Assembly (NCBI GenBank): GCA_005778315.1
Contig: SXOW01000513.1
Coordinates: 1-29,810, forward strand
Direction of reading: 5' to 3'
Source: Acidobacteriota bacterium
Lineage (GTDB): Bacteria; Acidobacteriota; Vicinamibacteria; Vicinamibacterales; UBA8438
DNA: 29,810 nucleotides
The position numbers and the translations under genes are program-made. Shown in pieces: positions 12,680 to 21,412 of the stretch. The notes beneath the pieces are model-generated. The model was not told the origin of the DNA. It made no database searches and was given only the letters and a program-made list of their open reading frames with translations. How positions within the stretch are numbered: position 1 is the first letter of the stretch; each line of letters starts with the position of its first letter.

Positions 12680-13789
12680 TCACCGGGCCCCAGGCCCCGG
12701 CACGACGAAGAACTGTGACATGTCGCCGGGCAGGGTGATCGTCCGCAGATAGCGGTACGTCGCCGCCTCATGGAGGTCGATGGTGTTGCCGGCTTGGTGA
12801 ATATAGAGAATCTGGCCGTTCGTGCTCGTCGCCAGGCCCATGCGAGGTCGGCCTTCGATGGTCTCACGCCGCGCCAAACGTCTGCCCACCAGGTCGAACG
12901 TCCACATTTCGTAGTGGCCGATCTCGCTCAGCAGCGCATAGGCCTTCTGGCCGCCCGGGGCCAACGCGAACGAACCCACCGGCTCGGACGGACCCAACGT
13001 GTAGAAATCGACGTCCCGTTCGGCCAGATTGATACGGGCCACGCCCATCAAGCTGCGGTTCTGCACCTCGTCGCGCACGCGAAAGAGGCCTGAGTAGAAT
13101 CCGGGCGCCTCGTTCCGATCGTAGTTGAACCCAAAGGTGAACTGACCGACCCCACCTTCGTCGGGTTGCGACAACGCCCACCGTTCGACCTCCTCGAAGG
13201 TGTCGGTCTCCAGCGCTACGATTTCGTCGCCGAACAGGTACAGCAAGCCCCCATCGGGTGAGAAGAGCAGGTTCACCCCGCTGTAACCCCCAGACACGAA
13301 GCCGTCCGGCCACGGGATTTTACGCACCACGTCGTGCGTAGCCAGGTCCACTTGCACCAGTGCCGGTGGGGCAATCTCGAACCGGTCGAGCTGCTTCGTG
13401 GCCGTATCGGTCAACAGGATGATCGACCCGTGGTCGGGTGCGGCCCGAAAATTCCGGATGCGGACCTTGGTCTGCCCCTCACTCAACGTCAGTGTGTCGA
13501 TGGTGCGGCGGGTCGCCACGTCCATGACCTCGATCTGCTCGAACGTGCGGTCCCGCATATACAACCGCGTGCTGTCTTCGGACAGGGCCATATTGCTCGG
13601 AGGACCGTCCAGCGTCATGGTGATGTCGGCTACCACCTGCTCCGTCGCCTCATCCACCACGAACACCCGGTTCGGATAGCCACCGACAAGGAGGGTGCCG
13701 GTCCCGCCGGTGAGATCGGTCGCAGGCTGGGCCGTCACCGGTGCGGCGACCGCAACGGCGGTCACGAGCGCGAGGAGAAGCAGACGCAT
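12680..13789 (-). CDS. qhpB: Quinohemoprotein amine dehydrogenase beta subunit (beta-propeller)
   Basis: Signal peptide and YVTN-like propeller repeats, directly downstream of qhpC in an A-D-C-B order. Confidence 0.8.
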   Translation of the reverse strand: MRLLLLALVTAVAVAAPVTAQPATDLTGGTGTLLVGGYPNRVFVVDEATEQVVADITMTLDGPPSNMALSEDSTRLYMRDRTFEQIEVMDVATRRTIDTLTLSEGQTKVRIRNFRAAPDHGSIILLTDTATKQLDRFEIAPPALVQVDLATHDVVRKIPWPDGFVSGGYSGVNLLFSPDGGLLYLFGDEIVALETDTFEEVERWALSQPDEGGVGQFTFGFNYDRNEAPGFYSGLFRVRDEVQNRSLMGVARINLAERDVDFYTLGPSEPVGSFALAPGGQKAYALLSEIGHYEMWTFDLVGRRLARRETIEGRPRMGLATSTNGQILYIHQAGNTIDLHEAATYRYLRTITLPGDMSQFFVVPGPGAR

Positions 13790-13798
13790 AGCGTAGGG

Positions 13799-14158
13799 CT
13801 AGGGAAAAATGAGGTCGATCTTCCGCCAGTCCTTCTGGGCCGCGGCACACTTGCTGGTCCAGTCGGGCGCGTGATTGAGCTGGTCGGGCACATGCGCCGG
13901 CCAGTAGCACCCCAGGTGACAATCAAACAGGTCGCGCTCGACGGGTTGGCAGAGTCCGGCTGTGCCGCCATTGCGGTCCGCTTCCCAACCTGGCTGAAAG
14001 GCCAGCGAGCACCCCAGCGGGATGTGGGGGCCCTCCGGTTGCTGCGGCGGCCCGGAGCCCTGCTGCAGCGCCACGACATCACCCGCCGGTGGCGCGGCCG
14101 CGGCCACGATGCGCGCGGCTTTTCGATTGATGGGAATCAGATGCTTCATGTGGTTCAT
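13799..14158 (-). CDS. qhpC: Quinohemoprotein amine dehydrogenase gamma subunit (CTQ cofactor precursor)
   Basis: Leader MKHLIPINRKA..DVVAL, then core GCSLAFQPGWE..LCQPVERDLFDCHLGCYWPAHVPD..DWRKIDLIFP. C7/E16, C27/D33, C41/D49 and C37/W43 equivalents are all present. Start ATG 14158 (GAGGG SD) or 14149. Confidence 0.95.
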   Translation of the reverse strand: MNHMKHLIPINRKAARIVAAAAPPAGDVVALQQGSGPPQQPEGPHIPLGCSLAFQPGWEADRNGGTAGLCQPVERDLFDCHLGCYWPAHVPDQLNHAPDWTSKCAAAQKDWRKIDLIFP

Positions 14159-14165
14159 GGTGCCC

Positions 14166-15602
14166 TCATGCGTCGAACCGGTCGAGGAAGCTCGGACTGC
14201 GCTCGGCGATCTCGCCGTAGATCCGCAGACAGATGTCGGTCCACTCGCGGATCCAGTCGCAGTAGTGGAGATTCGGATGGGTCGTGCTGCCGTAGCGCGT
14301 ATGGGCCTCGTGATAGCAGCCGCCAGAGCACAGCGGTCGCGCCCAGCACGTGTGACAGTCCGTCTTGTGGCCGATGTGGTTGCGTTCGAGAAACGCCCGC
14401 TGCGCGTCCCGGTCAAGCCCCGCGCTCACACTGCCCAGACCGTGTTCCTCCGACCCGGCAAAACGGTGACACAGCGCGACATCCCCGCCGGTCGAGACAC
14501 CGATCAACCCCAATCCGGCGCCACACGGATAGGCCTTGCTCACGCCTTTGTGAATCTCCCCAAGCGTCTCGCTGACGTTCGAGAAACCGTGATGCCGACC
14601 GGCCAGCGCGGCCTGCAGGAACTCGTCCGCGAGCGCTGTGAACTGGGTGACCATCTGGTCGAAGCCAGAGGCGTCGAGCGCGTGGTCGCGGTCCGGTGAC
14701 GTGGTGACCGGCGCGAATCCCACTTCTTGAAACCCGATCTCGTCGGTCAGGTGACGGTAGATGCCGAGCACATCACTGACCTGCGACGTCAACGTCACGC
14801 GGGCCCCAATCGGTCGACTCCGGTGACGTCGCAGGAGTTCCTGAACCCGCGGCAGCATCACGTCGTAGCTGCCGCTGCCGTCGTGAAACACGCGAAAGCG
14901 ATTCTGCATCTCGCGCGGCCCGTCAATGGACACCGTCACCGAGATGTCCTCGTCGGCCAGGAACGCAATCATCTTGGGCGTCAACAATGTCGCGTTGGTC
15001 GTCAGGTTGAATTCGACCCGCTTCCCGTACGCCGCCGCCTGGGCCTTGGCGTAGGGGACCGCCCGGCTCAACACGGGATAGTTCATCAGCGTCTCGCCAC
15101 CAAAGAAACTGACGTGGACCACCGCAACCTCGCCCGACTCGCGAAAGAGCAGGTCGATGCTCTGGCGCGCCGTCTCGTCGGTCATGAATTTGGGCTGCTT
15201 GCCGTTGGTCGTGTCGACGATCTTGTCTTCGCTGTATTCGTAGCAATAGCCACAACTCAGGTTGCACTGATTGGTGACGTTGAGCACCGCGGTGGTCAGC
15301 GGGAACGGCGTCACCGGTGTCAGCGGAATAATGGTTGGCGTCTTCGGCGCCGGGGTGGGCACCGGCTGAACCGCATGGATCTGCTCGAGTTCGGCGAGCA
15401 GCCCGCCCAGATCGGTGCGCGGAAACTGCGCGGACACCCGCGAGATCAGGTCCGTCCGGGTGGCCGGCGCTGCGTCGAGCGCATCGATCAAGGCCGCGGC
15501 CGGCGCATCGAGGGCGAACACTGCGGCGCTCGGCACGAGATACAGATAGCGGCGATTGGCCGCCTCGAACGCATGGTGCTCGCCCACACGCAGCATGGTC
15601 AT
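14166..15602 (-). CDS. qhpD: Radical SAM/SPASM thioether-forming maturase of QHNDH
   Basis: CNLSCGYC, SFFGGETL, TTNATLL, VSIDGP, SPASM Cys motifs (YPCGAG, LCHRF, CHTCWARPLCSGGCYHE), N-terminal RRE-like region. ATGA overlap with the qhpA stop at 15599-15602. Confidence 0.95.
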   Translation of the reverse strand: MTMLRVGEHHAFEAANRRYLYLVPSAAVFALDAPAAALIDALDAAPATRTDLISRVSAQFPRTDLGGLLAELEQIHAVQPVPTPAPKTPTIIPLTPVTPFPLTTAVLNVTNQCNLSCGYCYEYSEDKIVDTTNGKQPKFMTDETARQSIDLLFRESGEVAVVHVSFFGGETLMNYPVLSRAVPYAKAQAAAYGKRVEFNLTTNATLLTPKMIAFLADEDISVTVSIDGPREMQNRFRVFHDGSGSYDVMLPRVQELLRRHRSRPIGARVTLTSQVSDVLGIYRHLTDEIGFQEVGFAPVTTSPDRDHALDASGFDQMVTQFTALADEFLQAALAGRHHGFSNVSETLGEIHKGVSKAYPCGAGLGLIGVSTGGDVALCHRFAGSEEHGLGSVSAGLDRDAQRAFLERNHIGHKTDCHTCWARPLCSGGCYHEAHTRYGSTTHPNLHYCDWIREWTDICLRIYGEIAERSPSFLDRFDA

Positions 15603-17290
15603 GGTCGCTCTACCGCCGTCGGATCCCACCGCAGGTAATTGGGCACGGTCACCAGCAGATGTGCCCGCGCCCGGAGTGGGCCTTCGGACCCGGCATAGGT
15701 GCCCACCACCCACACGTCGCCGACATTGTTCCGATTCCCGCTGCGCTCGACATTCGGACCGTCTTCCGCAGGCGTAAACCGGCCCTGGCCGTCGATCGCG
15801 CCGACATACCTGCGGTCGTCATCCCCGAACGTCGTGGCGTACTCCTCCACGGTCCAGGTGACGTCGACGAGCCCGAGATCGAGATCGTCAGCCGTCTCCG
15901 CCTCGCCGTCCGGGCCATCGTGAAACGCACGCGCTTCGAATTGCTGGAACTGCTTCGGCACCCGCACCCCGCCGACACGCGCCATGCCCGCGTCCGGTGT
16001 GACGGCAATCCGGGACACGGTGTCGTAGACGGTGAGCGCATCGGCGAGCGCAGCCTGACCAAGGTAGAGATCCCGACGCCCGACGGCCGCATCTGCACCG
16101 ACACGTATCTCGGCCGTCACGAGATCAGGCGACGCGCTGGAGAGCCGTAGCACCTCCAGGCCCGGACCGAGATCCAAGTCTCCCGCAACCGCTGTCGCCA
16201 GATTCCCACCATGCAGCTGCAGCGAGGCCGTCTGCCCCACCTGGACCGCGGCCGGGTAGACCCCGGTGACAAGGGGGGCCGCCCCAACCCGACTCAGCGC
16301 CACATCAAGGCCGATCTCGTCGTAGCCACCCGTAAACCAGCGCCCGCGCATGGCCTGCCAGTCGCGGTCGACAAACATGACTTCGCGGAGCCCGTCGGGA
16401 TCGGCCGCAGTGGCCTCAGCAGCGCCTTCGAATGAGCGTCCCCGCCATTGGAAACCGGTGTAGACCACCGCGCGCCCCGTCCGCTCCACCTGCCGGCCGG
16501 TACGCGCGTAGACGTATCGGGTCTGGGTCGTAAATTCGTCGTCGGCACCGGGCAGGGCGGCGATGGTGACCTGACCATGTACGGCCCCGAGCCCCGGTGC
16601 ATGGCCCGTCAGCGCCCACGTGCCCGCGATTCTGGGCGGGCGCATCGTGGCTGACCAGGCAGACCACTCCGGCGAGTCCAGCGGAAAACGCTCGGTCAGA
16701 TGCGTGACGGCGTAGTCGACGGGCTGAGGCTCGTCGCTCTCACCTGACCGACGAAACGCCTGGAAGTCGGTAAAGGGGTAATACCCTTGATGCATGGCCG
16801 TGACGAGTCGCCACTCCTCGGCGGTCCGGCGCTGGCTCATGATCCGCCCCATCGAATGGCAGGTGGTGCAGGTCTGGTGAACGTCAGCGTCCTCGTAGGG
16901 CTGGTCGTCGGTGCGCCGCTCGGCTTCGAACGCGGCTGGTATCGCCTCTTCAGGCGCCAATCCAAGATTGTTGGCGAGGTAGCGCACGACCTCGCGCGCC
17001 ACCTCCGGCGTGATCGCCACCTCATTCAACATCACCATCCGACGGATGGTCTGCTGCCACCCCTCGGGGGTGGTGCGGCGGAAAGATATTCGGGACAAGC
17101 GCCCCTGGTCGTCCGCACGGTGGCAGGACCCGCAGGCCTGGCGCACGGCCTCGTCGGCGATCGGGATACCGCTATCAGCGGCGTCCGCGGCTGGCTGCGC
17201 TCCCGCCAGGGCCGGTGCGGTCACGGCCAGAGTGAGGGCGGCCCCGGTCAACAGCCGGCGAACGGCGGACATGAGGGGTAGCAGGCGCAT
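15599..17290 (-). CDS. qhpA: Quinohemoprotein amine dehydrogenase alpha subunit (dihaem c)
   Basis: Signal peptide, CGSCH followed by RISFRRTTPEGWQQTIRRM, CTTCH followed by QRRTAEEW..MH, PRIAGTWALTGH, C-terminal FEARAF..GNRNNVGDVWV..LLVTVPNYLRW. Confidence 0.95.
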   Translation of the reverse strand: MRLLPLMSAVRRLLTGAALTLAVTAPALAGAQPAADAADSGIPIADEAVRQACGSCHRADDQGRLSRISFRRTTPEGWQQTIRRMVMLNEVAITPEVAREVVRYLANNLGLAPEEAIPAAFEAERRTDDQPYEDADVHQTCTTCHSMGRIMSQRRTAEEWRLVTAMHQGYYPFTDFQAFRRSGESDEPQPVDYAVTHLTERFPLDSPEWSAWSATMRPPRIAGTWALTGHAPGLGAVHGQVTIAALPGADDEFTTQTRYVYARTGRQVERTGRAVVYTGFQWRGRSFEGAAEATAADPDGLREVMFVDRDWQAMRGRWFTGGYDEIGLDVALSRVGAAPLVTGVYPAAVQVGQTASLQLHGGNLATAVAGDLDLGPGLEVLRLSSASPDLVTAEIRVGADAAVGRRDLYLGQAALADALTVYDTVSRIAVTPDAGMARVGGVRVPKQFQQFEARAFHDGPDGEAETADDLDLGLVDVTWTVEEYATTFGDDDRRYVGAIDGQGRFTPAEDGPNVERSGNRNNVGDVWVVGTYAGSEGPLRARAHLLVTVPNYLRWDPTAVERP

Positions 17291-17349: not shown

Positions 17350-18888
17350 CTACAAACCGCCCGTCTCATGCACCAGCACACCCTTGGCGACCAACACCGA
17401 CAGCGCGCCCAGAAAGTCGGGCAGACTGACGGGCGGACAACACCGGATATACGCCTCGAACAGGTCCGGCACCTGCTCGTGGTCCGGCGCCAGCGCCACG
17501 AGACGCACCAGGTCGATGTCGCGCAGGAATCGGATCCCCCTCCCATTCAAGGGCCAGGTCGGCAGCACAAGCCGATCTTCGAGCACCACCTCTCGCTCCC
17601 GCAACGCCGGTTTCGCTTCCATCCGCACCTGATCGCCACGTCGCAACCTGATCCGGGGGGCCCGGCGCAGCCCATCGAACGCAGCGAGCACGCCGGGGTC
17701 GTCGCGCAGCGAGGCCACGTCCAGATCCGCGGACGGACCACGGTCATCCACGACCTCCCCCACACCCGCGCGTCCAGTCCAGAACGGGTGCACGTGGCGT
17801 TCGGCTGCCTCCGCGAAGAACGTCGATGCCTGCGTGACCGACGCCGCGTGAATCTCCTGCTCTCGCGCCGTGAACAGGTCTAGCGCCACACCGGCAAGCG
17901 AGGCGTTGGTCAGCGACGTATGCACGACGACCGCGGCCAGCCAGGCTGATGCCAGCGCCTTCTTGACGCCGTACGACGACAGCGGGTCGATGAAGGAGGC
18001 GGCATCCCCGACCAGCAGCACGCCGGGACCCCCGCCGGCATGCGCGTGATACAAGGACGCGTCGCACCCCCTCGGCGGGTTCGCGCGGGTCGCGTCCCGA
18101 AGGAGCCCTCGGAGCGCTACCGTCTTGGCCACCTCTCGTTCGTATCGGGACAGCAGCGCCCGGGCGCCGCCCATGTCAGTCGTTCGTGGGTCCACCATGA
18201 CCGTGACGTACCGTTGAGAGCGCGTCACCGGAACCGACCATGCCCAGCCGTCCGCATAGGTCTCGACCACGGTGTGGCTGGGGTCGGGCAGTCCCCAGCC
18301 GCCATCTCGGGTCCATGTCGCTGCGAGTGCGAGCGTGGCACCGGCAGGGTCGGCAACCCGGTAGCCGCGTCGGGCCACGACCCCGGCCCGACCGGAGCAG
18401 TCGAGCACAAATGCGGTCGCCACCGTATGGCGCTGCTGGTCGCGGGTGACATAGTCGACCGTGGACACAGAGGGCCCGGGACGACCACTGGCCGCCGCGA
18501 GCCGCACGTCCCGCACAGACGCGTCGGGCACGATCTCCGCCCCCGCGGCGCCCGCGAGCCGCAGGAGCAGGGCATCGAACTCACGGCGTTCGACTTGCCA
18601 GCCGGCGGTGCCGCTGGCAAAGGCGGCCGTGCGCGTCGCCTCTTCACCCCACCACACCGTATTTCCGGTACACCGCAGGAACCCGGCCGCATTGATGGCC
18701 TGAGTGACGCCCAGCAGATCGAACAGCCGCTCGCAACTGGGCGGAAGGGATTCGCCGAGCGACCGGGACGGATCAGCGGCGCGGGTGACCACCCGCACCG
18801 AGTGCCCCCACAGGGACAGGAGACGCGCAGCGGCCGCCCCGGCCGGTCCACCACCGATCACGACCGCGTCGAACGGTTCCCTCACCAC
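17350..18888 (-). CDS. qhpG: FAD-dependent monooxygenase (tryptophan-halogenase-like fold) of QHNDH biogenesis
   Basis: DAVVIGGGPAG, GESLPP, WQVERREFD, DCSGR, GWAWSVP, VGDAASFIDPLSSYGV; immediately upstream of qhpA. GTG 18888 chosen as start (CACAAT 6 nt upstream); ORF track gives 18930. Confidence 0.85.
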   Translation of the reverse strand: MVREPFDAVVIGGGPAGAAAARLLSLWGHSVRVVTRAADPSRSLGESLPPSCERLFDLLGVTQAINAAGFLRCTGNTVWWGEEATRTAAFASGTAGWQVERREFDALLLRLAGAAGAEIVPDASVRDVRLAAASGRPGPSVSTVDYVTRDQQRHTVATAFVLDCSGRAGVVARRGYRVADPAGATLALAATWTRDGGWGLPDPSHTVVETYADGWAWSVPVTRSQRYVTVMVDPRTTDMGGARALLSRYEREVAKTVALRGLLRDATRANPPRGCDASLYHAHAGGGPGVLLVGDAASFIDPLSSYGVKKALASAWLAAVVVHTSLTNASLAGVALDLFTAREQEIHAASVTQASTFFAEAAERHVHPFWTGRAGVGEVVDDRGPSADLDVASLRDDPGVLAAFDGLRRAPRIRLRRGDQVRMEAKPALREREVVLEDRLVLPTWPLNGRGIRFLRDIDLVRLVALAPDHEQVPDLFEAYIRCCPPVSLPDFLGALSVLVAKGVLVHETGGL

Positions 18889-18940
18889 CCGCGCATTGTG
18901 CCCTGTGTGCTGCGGCCAAACCAGCTGCACGGGTTTCCAC

Positions 18941-18992: not shown

Positions 18993-20735
18993 TTGATCGA
19001 TCCACACTTTCGCCGCGCGCTGACCTACTTGACCCCGTACTGGGGTCGGTTGACCCTGGTTCTGGGGCTCAGCCTTGTCTCAACGGCGGCGTCGCTCCTC
19101 GTTCCCCTCCTCTCCCGATGGCTCGTCGACGACGCCATTCTCGGCGGCGACCGTGGCGCACTCCGAACCGTCGTGGTCTCGTTTGTCGGGGTCACCGCGC
19201 TCGGATTCGGGCTCAACGTCTGGAGCGGGCTCCGGTACACGCGGGTGTCCGCGGACATCCTCTTCGATATGCGGCTGGCGCTCTACCGCCACCTGCAGAC
19301 ACTCTCGCCGCGCTTCTACGCCCGAACCCGGTTTGGCGACATCATGTCGCGCCTCAATACCGATATCGGGGAGATTCAGCGGGTCGCGGCTGAGGTCGTC
19401 CTGGCGTGGGTGGGCAACGTCCTCTTCCTGGTCGGGGCGGTCGGCATGCTCGCGGTGCTCGACCTGCGACTCTTCCTGGTCGGGGTCGCCCTGTTGCCGG
19501 TCAGCGTGTGGGCGCTTGTGCACTATCGGCGTCGTCTCGAAGGTCGCGTGGCCACACTCCGTGACCGGAGCGCGGATATTGGCAGTTTCCTCATCGAGAC
19601 ACTCCAGGCCGTCAAGCTGGTGGTCACCGCGAACGCCCAGGAGCGCGAGGTCCGTCGATTCAAAGAGCGCAACGCCGAGTTCATTGACGCGTTGATGGCC
19701 ATGCAGTGGACCAGCTATCTCTCGGGAGGCCTGCCGGGTGCGGTGCTCTCAGGCAGTTCCGCGCTGGTGTTTTTCTACGGTGGTCTACGGGTCATCGACG
19801 ACACCCTCACGCTCGGGACGCTGGTGGCGTTCATGGCGTACCAGATGCGATTGTTCGGGCCGGTCCAGGCCCTCATGGGGCTCTACACGAGCCTGGCGAC
19901 GGTTCGAGTCTCGCTGCGGCGGGTCCACGAGATTCTGGACGTTGCGCCGGAAGTGGTCGACCCCGCCACGCCGACCGTGCTCTCGTCGGTGCGTGGTGAG
20001 GTGCAGCTGGACGACGTCAGCCTCTCGTTCGACCGTGGCGCGCCCGTGCTGGAACATGTGAGCGTCCGCGTCGCGCCCGGTGAGTGCCTGGCGATAGTGG
20101 GTCCGAGCGGAGGCGGCAAGAGCACGGTCGCGGACCTCGTGTTGCGTCTCGTCGACCCCGACGACGGATGTGTGCGGCTGGACGGGCACGACCTGCGGAC
20201 CCTGCGGCTGTCAGACCTCCGGTCCCACATCGCGTTGGTGGACCAGGAACCGTCGATGTTTCATGCGTCGGTCGCAGACAACATCCGCTACGCACGGCCC
20301 GACGCGACGGACGCGGCACTGCACGCAGCGGTGCAGGCCGCCGGGCTGGAGGCGTTCATCGCGAGGTTGCCAGACGGCCTGGACACGACGGTGGGGGAAC
20401 GGGGTGCCGCCTTCTCCGCCGGAGAGCGGCAGCGGGTCGCGGTAGCCAGAGCGTTGCTGGCCGACCCCGCAGTACTCGTACTCGACGAAGCAACCGCAGC
20501 GCTCGACCCGGAGTCTGAGCGGCGGATCATCGATGGTTACGAGGCGGTGATGCGGGGGCGCACGACTATTCTCATTACCCACCGGGCGTCGGTGGCGAGG
20601 CGCGCCGACCGGGTTGTCGTGCTCGACGGCGCGCGCATTGTAGAGGCAGGGGTACCAGGTGAGCTGGTCGAGCGGCCAAGCCGCTTCGCCGACCTCTTCG
20701 CGGTCCATGCGGCTGGGAGCACCGAACAAGGATGA
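18993..20735 (+). CDS. qhpF: ABC exporter (fused TMD-NBD), probable gamma-subunit exporter
   Basis: Six-TM exporter domain, Walker A GPSGGGKS, Q-loop VDQE, signature FSAGERQR, Walker B VLVLDEAT, ITHR. The qhpF assignment comes from cluster context. Confidence 0.85.
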   Translation: MIDPHFRRALTYLTPYWGRLTLVLGLSLVSTAASLLVPLLSRWLVDDAILGGDRGALRTVVVSFVGVTALGFGLNVWSGLRYTRVSADILFDMRLALYRHLQTLSPRFYARTRFGDIMSRLNTDIGEIQRVAAEVVLAWVGNVLFLVGAVGMLAVLDLRLFLVGVALLPVSVWALVHYRRRLEGRVATLRDRSADIGSFLIETLQAVKLVVTANAQEREVRRFKERNAEFIDALMAMQWTSYLSGGLPGAVLSGSSALVFFYGGLRVIDDTLTLGTLVAFMAYQMRLFGPVQALMGLYTSLATVRVSLRRVHEILDVAPEVVDPATPTVLSSVRGEVQLDDVSLSFDRGAPVLEHVSVRVAPGECLAIVGPSGGGKSTVADLVLRLVDPDDGCVRLDGHDLRTLRLSDLRSHIALVDQEPSMFHASVADNIRYARPDATDAALHAAVQAAGLEAFIARLPDGLDTTVGERGAAFSAGERQRVAVARALLADPAVLVLDEATAALDPESERRIIDGYEAVMRGRTTILITHRASVARRADRVVVLDGARIVEAGVPGELVERPSRFADLFAVHAAGSTEQG

Positions 20736-21412
20736 CGCGCACCGTCGACCGGCCGGTCCGGGTGGCCGTGATTGACAGTGGAGTCAATCCCGCCCACCCG
20801 CACATCGGCTCGGTGGCTGGGGGCGTCGCCATCGGCCCGGACGGCTCTACCCACCCGGACTACCTCGATCGGCTCGGACACGGGACGGCGGTGGCGGCCG
20901 CAATCAAGGAACGCGCGCCGGGAGTCGACCTGCTGGCGGTCAAGGTCTTTCACCTCGAACTCAGCGCGCCGGTCGACGCCCTCGTCGCCGCCATCGCGTG
21001 GTCCGCCGCACAGCAGGCTGACCTCATCAATCTCAGTCTAGGCACCGCAAATCCCGCGCACGCGTTGGTGTTGCAGGCCTCGGTGGACGCGGCCCGCCGC
21101 GCTGGGGCCCTGCTCGTCGCGGCCGCAACCTGCGACGGCGTGGACTACCTGCCGGGCGGGCTGGCCGGGGTGGTACCGGTCGAACTCGATTGGACGGGCC
21201 CGCGGCTTGAGGTCGTCGTATCGGCGTCGGCCGGCGCCACCGCCGCATGCCGCGCGTCAGGGTACGCGAGGCCCATGCCTGGGGTATCCCCCGAAAGGAA
21301 TCTGAAGGGGATCAGTTTCGCCGTCGCGAACACCACCGGTATCCTGGCGCGGAAACTCGCGGCTGGCGGCCACGCGACCGTCGCCACCGCACTGGACGCC
21401 CTGCGCCGCTAG
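20732..21412 (+). CDS. qhpE: Minimal subtilisin-like (S8) leader peptidase
   Basis: VAVIDSGV (Asp), GHGTAVA (His), INLSLG, GISFA (Ser); no signal peptide or propeptide; ATGA overlap with qhpF. Confidence 0.85.
   Translation: MTRTVDRPVRVAVIDSGVNPAHPHIGSVAGGVAIGPDGSTHPDYLDRLGHGTAVAAAIKERAPGVDLLAVKVFHLELSAPVDALVAAIAWSAAQQADLINLSLGTANPAHALVLQASVDAARRAGALLVAAATCDGVDYLPGGLAGVVPVELDWTGPRLEVVVSASAGATAACRASGYARPMPGVSPERNLKGISFAVANTTGILARKLAAGGHATVATALDALRR

Follow-up and report, generated by a model that had tools for sequence, protein, structure and literature searches.

The study of radical-SAM thioether crosslinks within enzyme subunits has its founding case in quinohemoprotein amine dehydrogenase (QHNDH), and to our knowledge what is now known about the enzyme derives entirely from two proteobacterial proteins whose gamma subunit, QhpC, has four cysteines. 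All four of these cysteines end up in thioethers. The DNA analyzed here, a stretch of 29,810 nucleotides from an Acidobacteriota bacterium that we call the window, encodes a QhpC with a fifth cysteine, and the question raised by this locus is what becomes of that residue. An earlier note, made from the sequence alone, had proposed that the maturase QhpD joins it to a downstream aspartate in a fourth thioether ring.

The QHNDH locus is complete within the window, with qhpG, qhpA, qhpD, qhpC and qhpB on the minus strand, and F and E divergent from them, on the plus strand:

12680-13789, minus strand: qhpB, beta-propeller subunit (TIGR03907 match below the cut-off; synteny and length fit)
13799-14158, minus strand, stop codon included: qhpC, gamma-subunit precursor of quinohemoprotein amine dehydrogenase (PF08992, NF037958, gapless match to 1JJU_C/1JMX_G)
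14166-15713, minus strand, maximal ORF: qhpD, radical SAM/SPASM maturase (TIGR03906 equivalog and Pfam Radical_SAM)
15599-17290, minus strand: qhpA, dihaem alpha subunit (four QhpA domains found)
17350-18930, minus strand: qhpG-like flavoprotein monooxygenase (NF049967; Pfam Trp_halogenase and FAD_binding_3)
18993-20735, plus strand: qhpF-like ABC exporter (matches ABC exporter families; divergent from qhpG)
20732-21412, plus strand: qhpE-like subtilisin protease (NF049966 QhpE match; divergent from qhpG)

QhpC scores 110.1 bits with PF08992 (cut-off 25) and 117.2 bits with the equivalog NF037958 (cut-off 50), and judged by all testable features the window protein is a true QhpC. QhpD scores 573 bits with the equivalog TIGR03906 (cut-off 453); as the family match begins only at residue 45 of the maximal ORF, the true qhpD start probably lies near the end of qhpA, at about 15600. 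The QhpG-like protein, with 217.7 bits for NF049967, and the QhpE-like protein, with 147 bits for NF049966, fall below the respective cut-offs of 240 and 165, while QhpB reaches only 61.6 bits with TIGR03907 (E 6.9e-17, cut-off 223) and matches no Pfam family. By these scores QhpG, QhpE and above all QhpB are divergent members of their families. The nearest named relatives are metagenome-assembled Vicinamibacterales and other Acidobacteriota. Two in-frame ATG codons for qhpC are found just 3′ of the qhpD stop codon, at 14158 (119 aa) and 14149 (116 aa); the MKHL start of most homologs corresponds to the second of them, and the choice affects the leader peptide only. A GAGGG motif overlaps the qhpD stop (window positions 14149-14168, minus strand).

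Residues are numbered here so that the first core cysteine is Cys7, and residue 1 of the mature subunit is residue 44 of the 119-residue precursor (translated from 13802-14158). A phmmer search against the PDB sequences placed residues 48-119 of QhpC on residues 5-76 of the solved gamma subunits, over 72 residues without a gap, with E-values of 8.6e-21 for 1JJU_C (Paracoccus denitrificans) and 3.6e-20 for 1JMX_G (Pseudomonas putida). The codons and stretches that matter for what follows, all on the minus strand, are:

14009-14011, minus strand: codon of Cys7, known thioether donor to Glu16 (codon 13982-13984) (by register; chemistry from PMC7876137, PMC8172795)
13931-13951, minus strand: Cys27-Asp33 stretch, C-Q-P-V-E-R-D, known i+6 thioether ring (by register; PMC7876137, PMC8172795)
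13883-13921, minus strand: Cys37-Asp49 stretch, with the CTQ pair Cys37/Trp43 (Trp codon 13901-13903) and the Cys41-Asp49 ring (by register; PMC7876137, PMC8172795)
13847-13849, minus strand: TGT codon of Cys61, the fifth cysteine (Ala61 in both solved proteins)
13829-13831, minus strand: GAC codon of Asp67, the proposed thioether acceptor (Asp in both solved proteins)

The pairs Cys7-x8-Glu16, Cys27-x5-Asp33, Cys37-x5-Trp43 and Cys41-x7-Asp49 are all in register with 1JJU_C and 1JMX_G, and a pattern match agrees. Between Cys61 and Asp67 lie the residues A-A-A-Q-K. The description in the earlier note was therefore accurate on three points, namely the gapless alignment of the core to the Paracoccus gamma subunit, the position of the extra cysteine six residues before Asp67, and the identity of this i to i+6 spacing with that of the Cys27-Asp33 link. 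QhpD is known to make three thioethers in QhpC, each from a cysteine to an acidic residue 6-9 positions downstream (PMC7876137; PMC13692751), in a process described as "sequential" (PMC7876137). In the Pseudomonas system, crosslinking is aided by QhpG (PMC7876137).

Compared with the QhpC of Paracoccus (1JJU/1PBY chain C) and of Pseudomonas putida (1JMX/1JMZ chain G), the window protein shares, in addition to the 72-residue core and its four crosslink pairs, a leader peptide and the adjacent qhpD, qhpA, qhpB, qhpG, qhpE and qhpF. It differs in having five cysteines where the models have four, with Cys61 in place of Ala61, in a leader of about 40-43 residues as against 28, and in Tyr42 and Arg32 as against Trp42 and Ala32. 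The gene order, G-A-D-C-B with F-E divergent, also differs from that of the model systems, and the host is a member of the Acidobacteriota (Vicinamibacterales-like) whereas the models are proteobacterial. Position 42 (13904-13906, minus strand), next to the cofactor residue Trp43, is Tyr or Phe in the clade of the window protein, and Arg32 (13934-13936, minus strand), beside the catalytic Asp33, is present in 179 of 222 five-Cys cores but in only 1 of 155 four-Cys cores.

The ranthipeptide maturases (PapB for freyrasin, CteB for thermocellin; SCIFF) are, like QhpD, radical SAM/SPASM enzymes with a leader-binding domain, and they join the sulfur of a cysteine to a non-alpha carbon of a downstream Asp or Glu, with several rings per substrate (PMC8172795; PMC13692751). 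The substrate of QhpD is nevertheless an enzyme subunit and not a secreted peptide, and its rings span 6-9 residues, in contrast to the short repeats of freyrasin. The window QhpD scores below the cut-offs of the PapB/SCIFF models (NF047865, 265.7 bits against 340; TIGR03974, 231.2 bits against 425), and we take these scores to mean that the maturase is a QhpD, a relative but not a member of those families.

Is Cys61 an accident of one genome or a property of a lineage? It was found in all 120 of the best database homologs (67-98% identity), 119 of which also have Asp67. The 81 species-level genomes examined from Acidobacteriota and Gemmatimonadota all have exactly 7, 27, 37, 41 and 61 as their QhpC core cysteines, and Asp67 is likewise present in all 81. 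The codon at position 61 in these genomes is TGC in 73 and TGT in 8, both of which also occur at the four known cysteine positions, and since both cysteine codons are used at 61 the amino acid itself is under selection. Wider sampling, with 50%-identity representatives and a profile search using divergent members, showed Cys61 in many separate subfamilies, among them cultured Bacillota (Sporosarcina soli and a Planococcaceae strain), Terriglobales, Sericytochromatia and certain sequences of proteobacterial appearance. In all, 222 unique five-Cys cores, which carry Cys61, were compared with 155 unique cores without it. When clustered so that members of different clusters share less than 70% identity, Cys61 is kept in 18 of 18 five-Cys clusters, and the cores without it fall into 7. 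The 18 subfamilies, which include Bacillota and Sericytochromatia, share only 35-50% identity. In a search seeded with a four-Cys protein, by comparison, 118 of 119 sequences have only four cysteines. A basic residue at position 66 appeared to co-vary with Cys61 in the raw counts (211/222 against 64/155), but in the clusters below 70% identity the figures were 14/18 and 4/7, and this candidate was dropped.

In a maximum-likelihood tree of the 377 unique cores, the state of position 61 changes about four times. The cores that lack Cys61 group in what is essentially a single clade (151 sequences, support 0.96); this is the proteobacterial type, to which the model enzymes belong. The midpoint root carries Cys61. 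From this topology Cys61 is probably the older state, lost in the proteobacterial clade with both model enzymes; we call an ancestral Cys61 only likely because the tree is built on a short core of 76 residues, is weakly supported in places and is midpoint-rooted. Where Cys61 is missing, position 61 is occupied by A (107), K (26), S (11) or N (5), and also by E, V and Q. In the five-Cys class, by contrast, Cys61 is invariant although its neighbors vary, and given this invariance it is a selected residue and neither a chance nor a neutral substitution. Of the two outcomes that the earlier note had distinguished, conservation in the clade or sporadic occurrence, it is the former that was found (120/120, 81/81, 222 cores, about four changes on the tree). 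The feature is not special to the one QhpD that the note had considered; Cys61 is the state of most non-proteobacterial lineages. Across the sampled sequences, an invariant fifth cysteine defines a large class of QhpC that is broader than first noted.

A few sequences depart from the general pattern. W43R, D67N or C61Y occurs in single close homologs (P0090, P0008 and P0136); as these all lie on short metagenome contigs, the variants could be sequencing errors or rare dead alleles. P0432 and P0438 combine an N-terminal half of the proteobacterial type with a C-terminal half of the five-Cys type, and may be chimeric assemblies or recombinants.

The five-Cys QhpC of Sporosarcina soli (locus L084; Planococcaceae) resembles that of the window in its cysteine pattern, in Cys61 and Asp67 at i+6, and in being accompanied by a QhpB free of cysteines. 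It differs in that Pro62 follows Cys61, in its cultured, Gram-positive host, and in a gene order of C-A-D-B-x-U32-F-E, with a 303-aa protein and a U32-family protein where QhpG would be. In the five-Cys operons of L084:8001-16318 (Sporosarcina soli, GCA_042655805.1) and L082:556-5285, qhpB is followed by a protein of about 284-303 aa that matches no Pfam family and then by a Peptidase_U32-family protein; no QhpG flavoprotein was seen within these two stretches.

An unpaired thiol in an exported or extracytoplasmic protein is unusual, and the partner of Cys61 could in principle be sought in the other subunits. The window QhpB has no cysteine, and the cysteines of QhpA are confined to its two CxxCH haem motifs (residues 53, 56, 141 and 144), so that neither subunit offers Cys61 a partner, and a disulfide inside the heterotrimer is ruled out. 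In related genomes, 50 of 72 QhpB sequences lack cysteine and 57 of 67 QhpA sequences have only four, and across 81 such genomes we found no conserved extra cysteine in either subunit. The same holds for Sporosarcina soli, whose QhpB has no cysteine and whose QhpA has, besides the haem cysteines, only an N-terminal one that is a probable lipoprotein (lipobox) site. The pairing with an alpha- or beta-subunit cysteine that the earlier note had set against its own proposal thus finds no partner. Taken together with the invariance of Cys61 and its roughly four state changes on the 377-sequence tree, this makes both a disulfide with another subunit and a neutral, sporadic substitution very improbable. 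A disulfide that joins the gamma subunits of two enzyme molecules may be compatible with the sequence.

The most likely single fate of Cys61, which we put forward tentatively, is a fourth QhpD-made thioether to Asp67. QhpD, the radical SAM/SPASM enzyme encoded next to qhpC, would act on this cysteine too while the subunit is still in the cytoplasm, and would join its sulfur to the beta-carbon of Asp67, the putative acceptor, before the leader is cleaved by QhpE and the subunit is exported by QhpF. The closed ring would comprise seven residues, C-A-A-A-Q-K-D, with the size and direction of the known Cys27-Asp33 ring, and would brace the C-terminal third of the gamma subunit. The proposal is based on four observations: Cys61 itself, its invariance, the lack of a disulfide partner and a full-scoring QhpD. 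Because position 61 is invariant in the five-Cys class and free to vary in the four-Cys class, a chemically engaged side chain is expected there, and the pattern fits a chemically used side chain better than a packing one. Three further considerations would favor the thioether. QhpC is exported, which would make an unpaired thiol unusual, and its other four cysteines are all known to end in thioethers; of the acidic residues that follow Cys61, Asp67 alone is conserved in each of the five-Cys subfamilies; and the window QhpD is, by its score, a bona fide equivalog.

Not all the support once claimed for this candidate crosslink can be kept. Whereas clade conservation and the missing disulfide partner speak for it, as described above, the conservation of Asp67 and its spacing from Cys61 do not. 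Asp67 is found in 155 of 155 cores without Cys61 and in 221 of 222 with it; the two positions do not covary, since the four-Cys clade keeps Asp67 just as strictly, and for the same reason Asp67 must have a role of its own. The neighboring Trp68 and Arg69 are present in 155 and 147 of the 155 four-Cys cores, respectively. A spacing of exactly six residues in 218 of the 222 five-Cys cores was rejected as evidence of a ring, given that hardly any indels occur anywhere between residues 57 and 76 in either class. The pattern of conservation along this segment (W57, A64, D67, W68, R69, L/I71, V/I74, F75, P76) is also the same in both classes and shows, in the four-Cys class, an alpha-helix-like periodicity, which suggests a shared local fold that would need no crosslink.

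These observations lend weight to a different role for Cys61, that of a thiol left free where the C-terminal helix begins, lying on the conserved face of W57, A64, W68 and L/I71 and buried against the gamma core or a neighboring subunit, where it would serve in packing or in a non-covalent function such as hydrogen bonding or redox buffering. We regard this as a realistic possibility. It would account for the small Ala at position 61 in the model enzymes, which is also the most frequent residue at this position among the four-Cys sequences, and for a conservation of 57-76 that is the same in both classes, and it leaves the invariance of Asp67 explicable without a crosslink. On a wheel of 100 degrees per residue, position 61 falls on the face of W57, A64, W68 and F75, with D67 120 degrees away. 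The segment is, moreover, strongly helix-prone, and a two-bond bridge could not span residues i and i+6 of a regular alpha-helix. AlphaFold2 gave a pLDDT of 41.6 for the QhpC precursor alone and of 47.4 for the core with a 128-sequence alignment, for which Foldseek found no match to the solved gamma subunits; both models draw a helix over 57-70, at a pLDDT of about 50, which is too low to trust. The five residues between Cys61 and Asp67 are Ala-rich and contain no Pro or Gly in 199 of 222 cores, in contrast to the three known rings of the window QhpC, each of which contains Pro, and this scarcity would count against a thioether.

With identities of only 35-50% among the 18 subfamilies, a packing residue should, however, have given way to Ala, Ser or Val, and Cys61 never has; the Lys, Asn, Glu and Gln accepted at position 61 in the four-Cys clade argue, in addition, against a tight buried pocket, and an invariant unpaired thiol outside the cytoplasm would be unusual, all the more as it occurs in Gram-positives too. 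Nor does a helix necessarily separate the two residues. Many sequences have Pro62 followed by Ser63 or Asn63, and Pro followed by Ser or Asn is typical of positions just before or at a helix N-cap. Because these residues are frequent, and because only "two short alpha-helices" are spoken of for the gamma subunit (PMC7876137), the helix may start at about residue 63-64. Cys61 would then lie in the turn before it and Asp67 in its first turn, possibly close to each other.

Two further points would tell against the thioether between Cys61 and Asp67. QhpD is selective, in that Cys37 stays free throughout its action (PMC7876137), and it is spared in the model proteins despite Asp39 and Asp49 downstream of it. 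Furthermore, one five-Cys subfamily (P0174, P0444, P0449 and P0465) reads C-S-G-M-N-A-E-D-W, with Glu at i+6 and Asp at i+7; here one residue more separates Cys61 from the Asp-Trp pair, a natural variant of the spacing. Cys61 might instead be engaged elsewhere, in a crosslink to, for example, Trp57 or Trp68, in metal binding, or in the formation of the quinone cofactor. The invariance that favors the thioether would fit such a role equally, and Cys61 has an invariant Trp at both i-4 and i+7, yet W57 and W68 are just as invariant where Cys61 is missing, and there is no enzyme or precedent for such chemistry in QhpC. A small subfamily (P0192 and P0469) that lacks the cofactor residue Cys37 and yet keeps Cys61 would make sense if Cys61 reached the cofactor region; the contigs of its members, however, are 0.9-1.9 kb long, and the sequences could be erroneous or the genes non-functional. 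On balance, we consider an engagement of this kind unlikely. In detail, P0192 (1.9 kb contig) and P0469 (0.9 kb) have Thr for Cys37, a one-residue insertion before Cys41 and Tyr for Trp15, and retain Cys7, Cys27, Cys41 and Cys61; unless the genes are defective, another cysteine, possibly Cys61, would replace Cys37.

The distribution of the qhp operon was reportedly surveyed by Nakai in 2014. In the open-access literature on QhpC and QHNDH we found no mention of a fifth QhpC cysteine; an alignment figure of that earlier work (Nakai 2014) might show one. Only mass spectrometry or a structure can show the candidate crosslink. The question is testable, as a protocol of co-expression and mass spectrometry has already been published for the model proteins and a cultured carrier, Sporosarcina soli, is at hand.

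If Cys61 is crosslinked, QhpD makes four rings and not three, and both the accepted structure of the cofactor cage and the range of substrates known for the maturase would change. If it is free, it has still to be explained why a redox enzyme that is exported should keep an unpaired thiol invariant. It is conceivable, though we would not call it probable, that most natural QHNDHs, including those of Acidobacteriota, Gemmatimonadota, Bacillota and Sericytochromatia, carry four QhpD rings in addition to CTQ, the Cys61-Asp67 ring being ancestral and the three-ring proteobacterial enzymes a reduced derivative. The non-proteobacterial lineages are in any case the more diverse ones in our sample (18 against 7 clusters at 70% identity), and the enzymes studied until now may not be typical of the family.
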